A stretch of 64,000 bases of DNA from Candidatus Omnitrophota bacterium (GCA_015232565.1 JADFZK010000006.1:796-64795), one strand, 5' to 3'; positions 44,808 to 58,408 are shown, numbered from the stretch's first letter. Translations and numbers: made by a program. The notes: generated by a model not told the origin, from the sequence alone.

Positions 44808-45560
44808 GTGCACTGCTTTTACTGCGTCCACCTTTCGCCGCACCGCGAGCAATTAATTATTGACGATCCTGATGAAGTGCATCATTTGGCCCGAGTGTTG
44901 CGTGTACGGCCCGGAGACGAAGTGGAACTTGTTAATGGCCGGGGGGTCTGGGGGCGGGCACGTTGTTTAAAGATAGCCAAACAAACAGTCGAAGTTGTGC
45001 TTTTGCAATGCCAGGAAACTCCCGTCTTTAATTCCGTCAGGACCGTTCTGGCCTGCGCTTTACCCAAACGCGCCCGGTTCGACGATATTATCGAGAAATG
45101 CACCGAGCTGGGGGTGGATGAGATCGTGCCCCTGATCACCGAACGCACCGAGGCAGCGCCCAACCAGGAGGCGCTTTTGCGCATGGCGGCCAGGTTTAAT
45201 AAAGTTGTGCTGAGCGCGTCCAAGCAATGTAAGCGCTTGTGGTTTCCGGTTGTGTATTCACCTATGCTTTTTAGTCAGGCAGTCGATGTTTTTGCCATTG
45301 ACGGCAATGCCCTGTATTTTCCCTGGCTGGCAGGCGAGCGCAAGCTGTTAAAAGATGCAATGGGCCAATCGTCCGACAAGATCTTAAAGGCGCGGGTTTT
45401 CTTTATTGGCCCGGAAGGGGATTTTACTGCCGCAGAAGCGGCTTATGCGGTTGGCAAAGGCGCGGTGCCGGTTTCGCTGGGGGCTACGGTGCTAAGGGTT
45501 GAAACCGCGGCTATTGCGGTTGCGGCGTATGCGCATTTTATTACCGGAGGCTCTTCGTGA
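44808..45560 (+). CDS. rsmE: 16S rRNA (uracil1498-N3)-methyltransferase
   Basis: RsmE N-terminal PUA-like and C-terminal SPOUT motifs (…FIGPEGDFTAAE…). Confidence 0.85.
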   Translation: MHCFYCVHLSPHREQLIIDDPDEVHHLARVLRVRPGDEVELVNGRGVWGRARCLKIAKQTVEVVLLQCQETPVFNSVRTVLACALPKRARFDDIIEKCTELGVDEIVPLITERTEAAPNQEALLRMAARFNKVVLSASKQCKRLWFPVVYSPMLFSQAVDVFAIDGNALYFPWLAGERKLLKDAMGQSSDKILKARVFFIGPEGDFTAAEAAYAVGKGAVPVSLGATVLRVETAAIAVAAYAHFITGGSS

Positions 45561-47482
45561 AGTGGTGGGTGTCTTTGCCAGTCGTGCATAAGAAGTTCTT
45601 GGCAATTATCTTTTTGATAATTGCGACACTCCTTTTATATTCGTCGTTGTTTCAGGCTGATTATTTAAATTGGGACGACAAGGCCCATGTATTAGAGAAC
45701 CCGCTTATAACCAAACCTCAGGGGTCGTTTTTGTGGAATGTCTTTACCGAGGAGAATACAGCTAACGGCACATATATCCCTTTAACGGCGGCATCATTCT
45801 TCCTGGAGAAACAAATATTTGGTTTTGTGCCGGCTATTTCGCACGCGATAAATTTGTTTCTTCATATTTGCAATGTGATCTTGATTCTTGTATTGGGCCA
45901 GTATTTGGGGCTGTCATTTCTGGCGGCTTACGGGGCGGCTGTGCTTTTTTCGATTCATCCCATGCATGTTGAGTCGGTAGCCTGGGTAACAGAACGCAAA
46001 GATGTTTTGTATAGCTTTCTTTATTTGTCATCGTTGATCCTGTATTGTCGTTTTCAGGACACCGGCCAAGGCAAGCTTTACATTTGGGCTTTGTTGCTGG
46101 CGGTGGGCAGTGTGTTTTCCAAGCCCATGGCTTTGAGCCTGCCTTTGGTCTTGTTCTTAATTGATTTCATCAGAAATAAGCCACTGAACGGTAGAACGCT
46201 TTTGCAAAAGCTGCCTTTTGCGGCGGCGGTTTTTATGATAGCCGGGATCACTTTTGTTTTGAACAGCCGGCCGGTGGATTTTACCTTGCCATCTTCGCTG
46301 TTAATATGGTTATGGTCGGCATTCTTTTATATAAAGACGTTCTTTCTGCCGATCGCGCTTTCGCCAATTTATGATATTGCCAGGCCGGTTAGTATTCTTA
46401 ATCCTGAATATTGGATCGCTGTTCTTGGGGTAACAGGATTATTGACTGTGCTGTGTTTCAACTTAAGAGCGCGCTGGTTGATCTTTGCACTGGGTTTTTA
46501 CGTTTTCTCGGCTTTTTTCCTTTGGCGTTTTGATGTTTTTGATCCAGCTATTGTGGCCGACCGGTTTATGTATCTGCCAAGCTTGGGAATATGTTTCTTT
46601 CTGGCTTATGTTCTTGAGCGCTTTCTGGTTAAAGGGCGGATTGTATTCAATAAACCAGCATTATTTGTTTTGCTTGCAGTATTTATTGTTTTAGGCGTAA
46701 CGACTGTTCGACAGTTGTGTGTATGGCGAAATTCCTGGACTTTATGGAGCCGGGTTTTGGAATTAAGGCCTGATTTATATTTTGCGCATTACATGCGCAG
46801 TCAATCGTTAGCGGATAATAATTTTAATAAAGAAACCGATCGTTATTTTGAACAGTTTATTCTGAGTAAGTTGTCGTCTGTATTGGTGACGCCTGATGAG
46901 GTGGTTCTTGTTCGAAGTAAGTTGCCGTATTTTAAATCTTTGCTGGCTTTGCGCTGGCTTCGCAGAGATTTGGCCAGGCCTTTGTGGAAGAAGAGCATGT
47001 TTCAGGAAGTTGGGCTTGATTTAATTTATAAGGCCTATATAGACGAACTGCTTTTCATTGGGAACTACCGCAAGGCTTTGGATTATATTCAGAAAAAGGC
47101 AATGCATGTTTTCCCTACTGGAGAAGATTATGTCGTCATGGGGGGGTGTTATACTAACCTTCGCCTTTATTCCAAGGCCTTTGAAGCGTTAACAAAAGCG
47201 GTGCAAGTAGCACCGAATAATTATAATGCCTATCTGGCTCGGGGATCGGTGTCGGTATTGATGGGAGATATAAAAAAAGCTTTCTCTGATGTGGAGCATT
47301 TAATGCGGATCGATCCCAAAGCGTCTGATGGTTACGACCTTCTTTTTAACATGCTGGTTTCTTTAAACAGGTTGCCCGAAGCCCGGCAAGTGCTGGATAG
47401 AGAGCGTGTTTTGTTCCTCAAAGATCCGCAAGTGTTGCGGCATGCCGGTATTTATTCTCAACAATATGGTAAAAGCCAATGA
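45557..47482 (+). CDS. TMTC/DUF1736-like GT-C membrane glycosyltransferase with C-terminal TPR repeats (paralog 1)
   Basis: About 11 TM segments with the signature HPMHVESVAWVTERKDVLYSFLYLSS, then C-terminal TPR-like repeats; 641 aa. Confidence 0.75.
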   Translation: MKWWVSLPVVHKKFLAIIFLIIATLLLYSSLFQADYLNWDDKAHVLENPLITKPQGSFLWNVFTEENTANGTYIPLTAASFFLEKQIFGFVPAISHAINLFLHICNVILILVLGQYLGLSFLAAYGAAVLFSIHPMHVESVAWVTERKDVLYSFLYLSSLILYCRFQDTGQGKLYIWALLLAVGSVFSKPMALSLPLVLFLIDFIRNKPLNGRTLLQKLPFAAAVFMIAGITFVLNSRPVDFTLPSSLLIWLWSAFFYIKTFFLPIALSPIYDIARPVSILNPEYWIAVLGVTGLLTVLCFNLRARWLIFALGFYVFSAFFLWRFDVFDPAIVADRFMYLPSLGICFFLAYVLERFLVKGRIVFNKPALFVLLAVFIVLGVTTVRQLCVWRNSWTLWSRVLELRPDLYFAHYMRSQSLADNNFNKETDRYFEQFILSKLSSVLVTPDEVVLVRSKLPYFKSLLALRWLRRDLARPLWKKSMFQEVGLDLIYKAYIDELLFIGNYRKALDYIQKKAMHVFPTGEDYVVMGGCYTNLRLYSKAFEALTKAVQVAPNNYNAYLARGSVSVLMGDIKKAFSDVEHLMRIDPKASDGYDLLFNMLVSLNRLPEARQVLDRERVLFLKDPQVLRHAGIYSQQYGKSQ

Positions 47483-56620: not shown

Positions 56621-56722
56621 CCCATTGGTTACCGTTTTAATTCTTCTGCCATTTATGATAAATATAAACGCTAGGATGTTTTTATACAGTCCGCCCAGAG
56701 TCGATCAGCCGTTTGAGCCGGT

Positions 56723-58408
56723 TTGGACAATTCATTCGATCAGTTTCTTTCCAGGCAAGATATGCAATCGATTATTTTAAAGGTGCTCGATCTTATTGGT
56801 CTTTTTGTTTTGTCGGTCTTTGCTTTTGTTTTGTCTTTTAAGGCGGGTGAACGGGGTTTCTTTGCGTTTGATCAATCTATTTTCTTCGATGGCGCTTACC
56901 GGATTCTGTGCGGCCAGATCCCGTTTAAAGATTTTAGTTCTACTGTCGGGCCAATTACTTTCTGGTTACACGCCATTCCATTTAAGTTGTTTGGCGTAAG
57001 TTATTTTTCCTACCTTCTTGGAGCGGCAGTAATTAATTCTCTTGCCGCGCTCATTGTCGTGGCCATTTTGCGTTTGTTTTTTCCCCGGCGCCCGTTTTTG
57101 TCATATTTGGGCGGCGTTCTTACCGCGATCTGTTTTTATCCTCCGTTCGGCACCCCATGTTATGAACAATCGGCGATGTTCTTTGTGCTCTTGACTATAC
57201 TTTTGCTGGTTTTGGTGATCTTTGACAAACGCTTGAACCCGGTGGCTGGCTATAGTCTGCTTTTTATAGCGGGTATTTTTATGACCGCCTCTTTTTTAAG
57301 CAAGCAGAACATTGGATTTATCTACCCGGTATATTTCTTGTTGCTGTTATTGTCTGGATCTGAGCGTAAATGGCAGAATGTTCAACGGGTAATTGTGTTC
57401 TTTTGCGGTTCCCTGTTTAGTTCTGCTGTTTTTCTCTGGTGGCTCTGGCAATATTCTGACCTGAAGACTTTCTGGAATTCTTTTGTGGTCCTGACCGCCA
57501 GGTTGGGGTCGGGGCGCTTGGATATTTGTACGGGCAAGTATCTGGCGTTGGTAAATGTTGGCTCACCGGAACTGCAGAATATAATGCATATCGCGTTTGG
57601 GTTGTCTATTTTGGGCCTGGCGTTCTATCTAATAATCCCTAAGATTAGAAATATTCATTCGTCGCGTGTTTTTCTGGCGGGGGTGTTGTGTTTGTATGGG
57701 ATATCTTTTCAGTATTTCTTTATCGATACCACTCTTAATGAATCGGAAGTTGCCAGTTCTTTGGCGGCGTTGATCTTTGTTCTGGGCGTGGGTGTTTTTT
57801 ATGTGGCCTGGCGCGACCTGGCAGGGTATCTTGAAGCGAAAGGGGGCAAACAGCTTAAGGCCAGAATGGATCTGGTTAAGTGGATTGTTACTGCGGTGAT
57901 TATTGTGTTTGCCTGCCGCTTTGCCTGGCATGAGATTGAGGTGGCCCTGAAACGTTCTGTTCATGGCTTTTCCGGCAGCACTGAGTTCTCTGATTATATG
58001 AGGATAGAGCGCTTAAAGAATCTGCAATGGGGTCACCCTACCACTTTGCGGGGGACAGAGATCAAGGAAAATGATTTTACCGGCCTTTACGAATATCTTA
58101 AGAAGAAGGACTGCAACTTCTTTATTTTCCCTGACAATACCATTCTTTATGGCTTGCTCGGCAAGCCTTCACCCCAGCCTTTGCTCTGGTTTCATATCGG
58201 GGCGACTTTCCCGGTCTTAAATCATGCGGATATCGATCAAAAGATCGTGTCCGACCTGGAAAAGAACAAGGTCAAGATCGTGGTAGTGGAGAAAGTTAGT
58301 TTTCTTAATACCAAACTGGAATACTTCCCCCGGTTAAAGAAATATATCAGTGACAATTTTATTAAGATGCAGGAGATCGGAATATTTGGCATCTTTGAGA
58401 AAAGATAA
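56723..58408 (+). CDS. GT-C-like polytopic membrane protein with a C-terminal soluble domain
   Basis: Multiple TM segments; an early loop motif ERGFFAFDQSIFFDGAYRIL; 561 aa. Confidence 0.5.
   Translation: MDNSFDQFLSRQDMQSIILKVLDLIGLFVLSVFAFVLSFKAGERGFFAFDQSIFFDGAYRILCGQIPFKDFSSTVGPITFWLHAIPFKLFGVSYFSYLLGAAVINSLAALIVVAILRLFFPRRPFLSYLGGVLTAICFYPPFGTPCYEQSAMFFVLLTILLLVLVIFDKRLNPVAGYSLLFIAGIFMTASFLSKQNIGFIYPVYFLLLLLSGSERKWQNVQRVIVFFCGSLFSSAVFLWWLWQYSDLKTFWNSFVVLTARLGSGRLDICTGKYLALVNVGSPELQNIMHIAFGLSILGLAFYLIIPKIRNIHSSRVFLAGVLCLYGISFQYFFIDTTLNESEVASSLAALIFVLGVGVFYVAWRDLAGYLEAKGGKQLKARMDLVKWIVTAVIIVFACRFAWHEIEVALKRSVHGFSGSTEFSDYMRIERLKNLQWGHPTTLRGTEIKENDFTGLYEYLKKKDCNFFIFPDNTILYGLLGKPSPQPLLWFHIGATFPVLNHADIDQKIVSDLEKNKVKIVVVEKVSFLNTKLEYFPRLKKYISDNFIKMQEIGIFGIFEKR

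Follow-up and report, generated by a model that had tools for sequence, protein, structure and literature searches.

A 64,000-nucleotide stretch of DNA from a Candidatus Omnitrophota bacterium (GCA_015232565.1 JADFZK010000006.1:796-64795), analysed over its whole length and referred to here as the window, carries a type IV pilus operon to whose 3' end is attached a cassette of eight back-to-back open reading frames (ORFs) on the + strand, at positions 45557-58408. By exact protein matches in databases the window belongs to a 79.5-kb contig of a metagenome-assembled genome labelled 'Candidatus Omnitrophica bacterium' (locus tags HQL20_023xx). The cassette, whose genes we designate g1 to g8, encodes seven membrane glycosyltransferases of the GT-C type and one AT3 acyltransferase, and it is made up of a conserved three-gene core, g1-g2-g3, followed by a strain-specific addition of five genes, g4-g8. 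From the linkage seen in related genomes and by analogy with TfpW, the D-arabinofuranosyltransferase of Pseudomonas aeruginosa group IV strains, we interpret it with moderate confidence as a hypervariable periplasmic glycosylation cassette whose most likely targets are the pilus subunits.

Layout and composition of the cassette

The eight genes, with the length of each product in amino acids (aa) and the part of the cassette to which it belongs, are:

g1, 45557-47482, + strand, 641 aa: GT-C membrane domain of about 11 transmembrane (TM) segments, DD at residues 40-41, C-terminal tetratricopeptide repeat (TPR) tail; core
g2, 47479-48996, + strand, 505 aa: TPR-less GT-C of the Pfam-less g5 family; core
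g3, 48986-50875, + strand, 629 aa: paralog of g1, GT-C plus TPR, with an ortholog in all six genomes compared; core
g4, 50882-52237, + strand, 451 aa: predicted GT-C fold, small Omnitrophota family; accessory
g5, 52275-53879, + strand, 534 aa: g5-family GT-C; accessory
g6, 53933-55483, + strand, 516 aa: g5-family GT-C, recent paralog of g5; accessory
g7, 55514-56620, + strand, 368 aa: membrane O-acyltransferase consisting of the AT3 domain only; accessory
g8, 56723-58408, + strand, 561 aa: PMT_2 (ArnT/PMT-like) GT-C; accessory

An earlier note on this DNA, generated by a model, had described eight consecutive genes here, beyond the pilins and rsmE, and the ORF coordinates are exactly those it gave; the single unit it had made of them gives way to a core and a lower-G+C, strain-specific addition. 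The last pilin gene ends 2 bp before rsmE, which in turn overlaps g1 by 4 bp, while g1 overlaps g2 by 4 bp and g2 overlaps g3 by 11 bp; these overlapping stop and start codons suggest that the genes from the last pilin through g3 are co-translated. The G+C content of the cassette (37-43%, against about 52% in its flanks) is accompanied by a strong excess of T, typical of membrane proteins, and is lowest in g4-g8 and in the AbiEi-type, AAA_14/DUF4143 and TacA/GNAT genes that follow. All-against-all BLASTP comparison of the eight proteins delimited two paralog sets: g1 and g3 (36% identity, E 1e-99), and g2, g5 and g6, in which g5 and g6 share 51% identity (E 4e-162) and g2 shares 30% with each of them (E 1e-48 to 1e-55). 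Promoter and terminator scans returned signal not clearly above that of shuffled controls, no tRNA or Rfam element was found to mark an insertion boundary, and no cassette homologs were found on plasmids.

A full type IV pilus-type operon lies 5' of the cassette on the same strand, running from a pilM-like gene through the pilins and then rsmE, with two small genes between the pilM-like gene and the secretin gene:

34623-36203, + strand: pilM-like gene, start of the operon (PilM_2, E 3.5e-13)
37624-39060, + strand: secretin, pilQ-like (Secretin, E 1.4e-37; Secretin_N)
39069-40802, + strand: pilB-type assembly ATPase (T2SSE, E 2e-138; MshEN)
40806-42038, + strand: pilC-type platform protein (T2SSF, E 6e-55)
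42217-42669, + strand: major pilin of 150 aa, beginning MNKKGFTLIEI, candidate acceptor (N_methyl, E 2e-8)
42727-43134, 43136-43609, 43600-44100 and 44116-44805, + strand: four minor pilin-like ORFs (N_methyl)
44808-45560, + strand: rsmE, a housekeeping 16S rRNA methyltransferase gene (Methyltrans_RNA, E 1.5e-37; PUA_4)

Families and predicted folds of the cassette proteins

The two proteins g1 and g3 have Pfam TPR matches between residues 480 and 615, in their C-terminal 150 residues or so (525-615 in g1; TPR_1 at E 3e-15 in g3), and the hydropathy of the g1-family alignment fits about 11 TM segments with a positively charged N-terminus on the inside. The g1-family profile, A4, built from 12 sequences, has D40, D41, H134, P135, R147, K148, D149, K189, R336 and Y339 as invariant positions. 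Both proteins had been described in the earlier note as TMTC/DUF1736-like transferases with the signature HP[ML]HVE[SP]VAWVT.RKD and TPR tails. The signature is present, as HPMHVESVAWVTERKD in g1 and as HPLHVEPVAWVTARKD in g3, and so are the tails; the DUF1736 label had to be abandoned, since the N-terminal domains of g1 and g3 showed no Pfam match to DUF1736 even at E<=10, and TMTC/DUF1736 membership was accordingly rejected. Among the 12 members of the g1 family none matched DUF1736 at E<=1, and one touched PMT_2. Nor is the signature one of DUF1736: it lies in TM3 and the second extracytoplasmic loop (EL2), and ends in the RxD of TMTC motif M3. With more than 1,344 matches the g1-type family ranks as very large, all the listed matches that bear an organism name being Omnitrophica or Omnitrophota, and some relatives are annotated at source as protein O-mannosyltransferase or GT39. 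Sequence searches of the PDB with the single proteins and with the g1-family profile retrieved only TPR or spurious matches, and NCBIfam gave for the eight proteins only TPR matches or marginal ones far below cut-off.

Neither Pfam nor NCBIfam returned a family match for g2, g4, g5 and g6. For the three paralogs among them, which had been taken for an uncharacterised 12-TM family, the evidence points to a TPR-less branch of the GT-C enzymes. In hhalign comparisons the membrane domain of g1/g3 was aligned with the g5 family over TM1-TM4 at 94% probability (E 1.4e-7), the DD of g1 being paired with the near-invariant D54 of g5, and HPMHVESVAWVT with NxEAVIWHxIT; this profile evidence makes the g2/g5/g6 family and the membrane domain of g1/g3 remote relatives. 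The AlphaFold2 model of g5 (predicted local distance difference test, pLDDT, 77; predicted template modelling score, pTM, 0.81) was compared with the PDB by Foldseek, and 15 of its 18 top matches were GT-C enzymes, 11 of them at probability 1.00, with STT3, DPY19, ArnT, EmbB and Pmt1 at the top. An exhaustive search of 1.84 billion representatives with the g5-family profile retrieved at least 1,477 clusters (50% identity) at E<=1e-3; 446 of them reached E<=1e-30, and among the 150 matches listed nearly every one covers the greater part of the profile. A word-indexed search had found 10 g5 relatives only. Judged from these profile matches the family is real and sizeable, and it has no Pfam, NCBIfam or PDB sequence match here. 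Besides D54, its conserved residues are R80, R93, E215 and R379.

The model of g4 (pLDDT 91.7, pTM 0.91) had GT-C enzymes as all 12 of its best Foldseek matches, nine of them at probability 1.00, headed by STT3, AglB, Pmt4, ArnT and PglB at about 1.0. For both models every high-probability match was a GT-C, among them yeast and human STT3, archaeal AglB, Pmt1/2 and the C-mannosyltransferase DPY19, with transporters and G protein-coupled receptors coming next at probability below 0.2, with TM-scores of about 0.45, E values of 6e-4 to 1e-2 and sequence identities of 10-16%. Both g4 and g5 are thereby GT-C proteins by predicted fold; for g4 the assignment is by fold only, because the comparison of its family with the g1-family profile was not significant (10% probability). 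The family of g4 is small, with 29 homologs, all those bearing source names being Omnitrophica or Omnitrophota.

The Pfam domain Acyl_transf_3 (PF01757) covers residues 12-345 of g7 (E 9.8e-27, 94.3 bits against a cutoff of 31), and g8 matches PMT_2 (E 7e-8; 33.3 bits, cutoff 26.1). The earlier note had counted one Acyl_transf_3 enzyme and two further GT-C-like proteins, g4 and g8, all three now borne out by these matches and by the predicted fold of g4; the annotation with hidden Markov models that it had suggested places PMT_2 on g8 and leaves g1/g3 without DUF1736. Wzy_C was not found in the eight proteins at E<=0.01, nor at E<=10 in the six N-terminal domains and Pfam-less proteins that were rescanned. 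The GT-C hallmark of an Asp or Glu shortly after TM1, in the first extracytoplasmic loop (EL1), is present in all seven large membrane proteins: NWDD in g1 and NFDD in g3 (D40 and D41 of the 12-sequence profile), KHDQ in g2, RADQ in g5 and g6 (D54 being conserved in at least 90% of 43 g5-family sequences), VFDA...YEE in g4, with D30 nearly invariant, and FAFDQ...FFDG in g8. All seven are therefore assigned to the GT-C type by predicted fold, Pfam or profile evidence.

A conserved core and a variable part in related genomes

From the relatives of g1 and g3 we obtained five further Omnitrophota contigs, L015 (with a 327-kb twin), L017, L018, L019 and L020. Orthologs are only 39-63% identical across the genomes, which makes these well-separated species. 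The six genomes have one order in common, in which the pilM-to-secretin genes are followed by pilB, pilC, the major pilin, the minor pilins, rsmE and the GT-C cassette; because the same arrangement recurs in the five other genomes, it far exceeds what chance would produce. The link to pilus genes drawn in the earlier note has thus been strengthened. A pilM-like gene stands at the corresponding place in L017, in L019 and in the 327-kb relative, and the place of rsmE is conserved in all six genomes (63% identity to the L015 ortholog). Orthologs of g1 are 39-56% identical in L015, L017 and L019, those of g2 49-60% in L015, L017, L018 and L020, and those of g3 40-61% in L015 and L017-L020. The composition of each cassette, T standing for a g1-type gene with TPR and 5 for a member of the g5 family, is:

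L015: T-5-T
L017: T-pilin-5-T, as well as a 796-aa protein that matches YfhO weakly
L018: 5-T, as well as two divergent genes of g1 type
L019: T-T-5, as well as a radical-SAM gene
L020: 5-T-5-5
Window: T-5-T-g4-5-5-AT3-PMT_2

Cassette size ranges from three to eight genes, and what all six have in common is the g3 ortholog and at least one g5-family gene. Directly 3' of the cassette, L015, L018 and L020 carry recA-recX-alaS-hisD, with a radical-SAM gene in between in L019; recA was not seen in the L017 locus, where other genes follow. The genes g4-g8 and the toxin-antitoxin genes of the window sit where the relatives carry recA.

The major pilin of the window is 48-64% identical to the first pilin of the five relatives, and its C-terminal half is rich in Ser and Thr. 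The L017 locus has a second major-pilin copy (12132-12578), 89% identical to the first, between the orthologs of g1 and g2, and L019 has two tandem copies (6109-7150) that are 86% identical. In these duplicated pilins the differences cluster in the C-terminal half. When the window pilin and its orthologs are aligned, a C-terminal stretch, GIVNK[T/V]GST, is seen to be conserved across the major pilins, together with runs of Ser and Thr; the stretch could be a modification site. An N-x-T tripeptide lies within it in five of the seven aligned pilin copies and is not conserved in L019.

Pilus linkage in other gene orders

Since synteny inside one lineage can be inherited, links that occur in other gene orders matter for the association between these enzymes and pili. 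The broad alignment A5 of the g5 family proved too divergent to serve for scanning loci; scans with A2 retrieved three genome loci and six metagenome loci, mostly short, and no locus among viral contigs. In L006 (Omnitrophota, 54.5% G+C) the opposite strand carries a g5-family gene between pilin gene and pilM, in a cluster of the order pilB-pilB-pilC-X-pilin / pilM-pilN-pilO-secretin. In L012, a metagenome contig (151-14841), a distant g5-family gene of 692 aa follows pilB/pilT-pilC-pilS-pilR and a gene with an MshEN domain, with LPG_synthase_TM, a 316-aa GT2 and a PAP2+PMT_2 fusion a few genes downstream; no pilin motif was found on this contig. The slot that the g5-family gene takes up in L012 is the one where Geobacter-like arrangements would have the pilin gene. 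In the Rokubacteria locus L004/L008 a pilin-like gene adjoins a pair of TPR-bearing g1-type genes, one for PMT_2 and one of the g5 family; next to this group come a GT2 gene and a pathway for sugar modification, with genes for GHMP kinase, radical SAM, an epimerase, DegT and an E1/transketolase-like protein.

Four of the six independent g5-family contexts with enough flanking sequence are linked to pilus genes, for which we put the probability of chance occurrence at roughly p ~0.01, as an estimate that allows for the density of pilus genes and not as a computed statistic. The g5-family genes of L003 and L007 have no pilus genes next to them. In L003, L004, L007 and L021, the last a 6.8-kb contig, the g5-family genes are flanked by GT2 genes of about 240 aa, a length that matches polyprenyl-phosphate sugar synthases.

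Homologs of g4 form a tandem pair in L001 (1-13363), a sugar-nucleotide and ABC-transporter locus that resembles polysaccharide biosynthesis. It holds epimerases, a split E1_dh/Transket_pyr, a GHMP kinase, an NTP transferase, a DegT aminotransferase, an ABC exporter and a GDSL-like protein. The set of E1/transketolase, DegT, GHMP kinase and epimerase genes is common to L001 and the Rokubacteria locus L004, and its recurrence suggests a common unusual sugar.

Comparison with known systems

TfpW has been described as a protein of 646 aa with a cytoplasmic N-terminus, 11 TM segments, a periplasmic DDx in loop 1 and a periplasmic C-terminus of TPRs; its best structural template is ArnT, its gene follows pilA, and it has also been proposed as a translocase (Burrows laboratory, bioRxiv 10.1101/2020.04.19.049825). 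Compared with this published description, g1 and g3 match TfpW in size, in their approximately 11 TM segments, in the DD and in the TPR tail, and they are likewise positioned after the pilin block. By analogy of architecture and position, TfpW is the closest analogue of g1/g3. There are also differences: TfpW acts as a single enzyme, or together with TfpX, whereas the Omnitrophota cassettes hold three to eight GT-Cs; no pathway to D-arabinofuranose of the DprE1/DprE2 type was found in the window; and the tfpW gene directly follows that of the major pilin, while the cassette of the window is set apart from it by four minor pilins and rsmE. Closer adjacency is found in L017, with its pilin copy between the g1 and g2 orthologs, and in L006, where the g5-family gene abuts the pilin gene.

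The TMTC enzymes glycosylate specific protein domains, the four human ones all match DUF1736 at E<1e-19, and DUF1736, which corresponds to the loop that joins TM7 to TM8, is accompanied by seven listed motifs, M1-M7 (Eisenhaber and colleagues, Table 4; PMC7801869). The likeness of g1/g3 to TMTC1-4, eukaryotic protein O-mannosyltransferases of the GT-C/PMT clan, lies in an N-terminal GT-C domain of about 11 TM segments followed by TPRs, with a sidedness that would be the same. By-eye comparison of the g1 family with the published motifs found three kept and invariant, M1 (DD at 40-41), M3 (RxD, as RKD at 147-149) and M7 ([E/D]RxxY, as DRFMY at 335-339); two partly kept, M2 (TYIPLT vs SHKSYRPL) and, in M4, its Lys (SK189P vs KE[T/Q]); and two not recognisable, M5 (DW) and M6 (PxxP). 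Unlike the TMTCs, g1, g3 and 12 relatives have no match to DUF1736. The analogy with TMTCs is in any case not needed, because TfpW already has the layout of 11 TM segments plus TPRs.

Enzymes of the ArnT/PMT_2/STT3 type (5f15, 6s7t, 8age, 9i5k and 7zli) were the best and the only consistent structural matches of the g4 and g5 models; the cassette proteins differ from them in having neither the periplasmic domain of STT3/PglB nor a MIR domain, and no PDB chain was matched at sequence level. The STT3/PglB fold matches and the NKT tripeptide of the major pilin brought up N-glycosylation, a reading rejected as unsupported because the tripeptide is not conserved in L019, has no acidic residue at -2, and the STT3/PglB periplasmic domain is missing. 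Among bacterial O-glycosylation systems, the Neisseria glycan is assembled in the cytoplasm on undecaprenyl pyrophosphate before PglO/PglL, a Wzy_C-type enzyme without counterpart in the cassette, transfers it en bloc. The PilO/TfpO/PglL enzymes belong to this other family (Wzy_C) and transfer preassembled oligosaccharides, not single sugars from polyprenyl phosphate; in group I strains of P. aeruginosa the gene of PilO/TfpO neighbours pilA, and the enzyme glycosylates pilin in the periplasm (bioRxiv 10.1101/2020.04.19.049825). As for acylation, the Neisseria protein PglI has a PF01757 domain at residues 8-343, and when it is lost the PilE glycan lacks its acetyl group; the pglI ORF of 1,871 bp (about 620 aa) encodes a further C-terminal region, and relatives of PglI are described as lipopolysaccharide O-acetylases (PMC1976384). 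The PF01757 domain is the same in g7, which with its 368 aa consists of AT3 only. The O-acylation proposed in the earlier note consequently has a precedent in pilin-glycan acetylation by PglI (PMC1976384).

Other features of the window

Directly 3' of the cassette, where several relatives have recA, there is a run of genes of the defence or addiction type (58493-63189), mobile in character:

58493-59981: AbiEi-like antitoxin and NTP_transf_8 nucleotidyltransferase (Pfam)
61075-62403: AAA_14/DUF4143 ATPase (Pfam)
62418-63189, - strand: TacA-like antitoxin and GNAT toxin (Pfam)

A second type IV filament-like cluster is present at 17234-23260, in which a fusion of a pilin-like motif with a phage tail Collar domain adjoins a TraU-like gene, an unusual combination:

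17234-17665: pilin-like ORF (N_methyl)
17899-18975: protein of 358 aa whose pilin-like motif at the N-terminus is fused to the Collar domain
18972-19880: TraU-like protein
20691-22238: T2SSE ATPase
22235-23260: T2SSF protein

Apart from both pilus clusters, a lone T2SSE-family ATPase of 435 aa is encoded at 4940-6247, right after uppS-cdsA-dxr-rseP. The genes uppS and cdsA, which the earlier note had mentioned as present in the same window, were ruled out as components of the system; they belong to that housekeeping block, 43 kb upstream, and add nothing to the case. Nearly all genes of the window are on the + strand, and GC skew is positive throughout, its cumulative value climbing monotonically. 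Scans of the 64 kb for tRNA genes and Rfam RNAs detected none.

Discussion

This study shows the assignment of the eight proteins by predicted fold or family, their candidate catalytic residues, the paralogy among them, the core-plus-accessory structure of the cassette and a pilus linkage that is conserved but variable. From these, and from the analogy with TfpW, we propose that the donors would be polyprenyl-phosphate monosaccharides, as expected of the GT-C family and as the GT2 neighbours in relatives suggest; other parts of the genome would encode their synthesis, and they would be flipped to the periplasm. There g1 and g3, with a predicted cytoplasmic N-terminus, a putative catalytic DD loop after TM1 and a TPR tail probably on the periplasmic side, would act on the pilin. 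As the parallel with TfpW and the TMTCs suggests, the TPR tails may dock the membrane-anchored pilin, and the two enzymes would transfer the first sugar or sugars to Ser/Thr residues of its S/T-rich globular half, in the way of TfpW, a role for which their architecture and position argue. Extending or branching the glycan, sugar by sugar at the periplasmic face, could then fall to the GT-Cs that lack TPRs, namely g2 of the core and, in this strain, g4, g5, g6 and g8, and g7 might O-acylate the glycan as PglI does in Neisseria. The glycosylation system suggested in the earlier note is retained in its GT-C identity and pilus link, and has lost its TMTC membership, the eight-gene unit and uppS/cdsA.

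Several observations weigh against pilus subunits as the target. A housekeeping gene, rsmE, stands between the pilins and the cassette, and recA after the cassette, so that inheritance, and not function, could account for the synteny within one lineage; shared orientation means little, because nearly every gene of the window is on the same strand; and pilus genes are unusually frequent in the phylum, with three clusters in the window itself, which raises the odds of chance adjacency. The g1-type family is not confined to pilus loci, some members lacking the linkage, as does the tandem g1-type pair of L016, and the g4 homologs of L001 sit in their polysaccharide-like locus. As to the chemistry, the Emb-like motif YX6PFX7P of TfpW was absent by regular-expression search from all seven GT-Cs, and neither a GT2 polyprenyl-phosphate sugar synthase nor a sugar-nucleotide pathway was detected among the larger window ORFs scanned. 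AT3 enzymes, moreover, mostly act on polysaccharides.

In a different account, which we regard as rather unlikely, the cassette modifies glycans or lipids of the cell envelope (lipopolysaccharide core, O-antigen, exopolysaccharide or, ArnT-like, lipid A) and lies next to the pilus genes by inherited order or co-regulation. The GT-Cs would here add or polymerise sugars on a non-protein acceptor, like mycobacterial Emb/Aft or the Gtr systems, and g7 would acetylate a polysaccharide, in keeping with the typical action of AT3 enzymes on O-antigen, enterobacterial common antigen and peptidoglycan. The PMT_2/ArnT-like nature of g8, the presence of rsmE and recA around the cassette and the company of the g4 homologs in L001 (epimerase, GHMP kinase, NTP-transferase, DegT and ABC-transporter genes) all fit such a role, and YfhO, PMT_2+PAP2 and LPG_synthase_TM, typical of envelope modification, occur in the Rokubacteria and L012 loci. 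However, it leaves unexplained why the g5 family turns up inside pilus clusters or next to them, in four gene orders and no fewer than two phyla, why L017 has a copy of its major pilin inside the cassette, and why the enzymes carry protein-interaction tails of TPRs as TfpW and the TMTCs do; moreover, no Wzx, Wzy, Wzz, WaaL or cytoplasmic GT-A/GT-B genes were found in or beside the island.

If the acceptors are proteins, they need not be pilins in particular, and a broad periplasmic protein O-glycosylation, by a system analogous to the general ones of PglL type or to eukaryotic PMT/TMTC, has been considered, with different TPR-bearing GT-Cs choosing among many secreted or membrane proteins and pilins as at most one class of substrate; we deem it improbable. 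The huge size of the g1-type family, the paired paralogs that occur also away from pilus genes and the action of TMTC enzymes of the same layout on specific protein domains (PMC7801869) are compatible with it, as are the names, still provisional, under which sources list some relatives (protein O-mannosyltransferase or GT39). Against such breadth, the g1-g2-g3 orthologous group stays at the pilus operon in six genomes, and the g5 family, which lacks TPRs, is itself pilus-linked. Very improbable, to our mind, is that the proteins have a GT-C-like fold and are not glycosyltransferases at all, serving instead as flippases of lipid-linked sugars, polymerase- or ligase-like proteins or pilus-assembly factors of the TfpY/TfpZ type. 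The modest Foldseek values (E 6e-4 to 1e-2, TM-scores of about 0.45), the lack of a sequence-level match to any solved GT-C and the proposal of TfpW as a translocase too (bioRxiv 10.1101/2020.04.19.049825) leave some room for this, but the residues speak for catalysis: in the g1 family the DD of EL1, the RxD of EL2, K189 and the [D]RxxY before TM10 fall at catalytic or phosphate-binding positions of GT-Cs, D54, R80, R93, E215 and R379 of the g5 family likewise fall at such positions, and the match to WaaL is weak (probability 0.16).

Glycosylation of pilins by a GT-C plus TPR enzyme encoded next to pilA is already known from TfpW, which is, to our knowledge, the single system in which a GT-C encoded beside the pilin gene glycosylates the pilin, in Pseudomonas and a few relatives; in the library searched we found no paper on pilin glycosylation in Omnitrophota. 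Three things are new: a cassette of multiple GT-Cs that is hypervariable in composition, its conserved place behind the pilus operon of a candidate phylum, and the recognition of a large GT-C family, without a Pfam model, that accompanies type IV pilus genes in several phyla. Glycosylation by TfpW blocks pilus-specific phages, and members of the Omnitrophota are ultra-small and possibly host-dependent. It is tempting to speculate, quite tentatively, that Omnitrophota, and sporadically other phyla, use a strain-variable periplasmic assembly line of GT-Cs, the g5 family among them, to build varied glycans directly on their type IV pilins, sugar by sugar from polyprenyl-phosphate donors, the gain and loss of cassette genes diversifying the pilus surface against pilus-specific phages or as a code for recognition of hosts or partners.

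Should the pilus subunits be the target, the TfpW principle would extend to a deep-branching uncultured phylum that apparently relies to a large degree on type IV pili, and the cassette would be the first description of a multi-enzyme, hypervariable version of it. The g5 family would gain a testable function together with a genomic marker, its linkage to type IV pilus genes, and g1, g3 and their kin would provide bacterial relatives of TMTC/TfpW layout for structural work on the selection of acceptors by TPRs.

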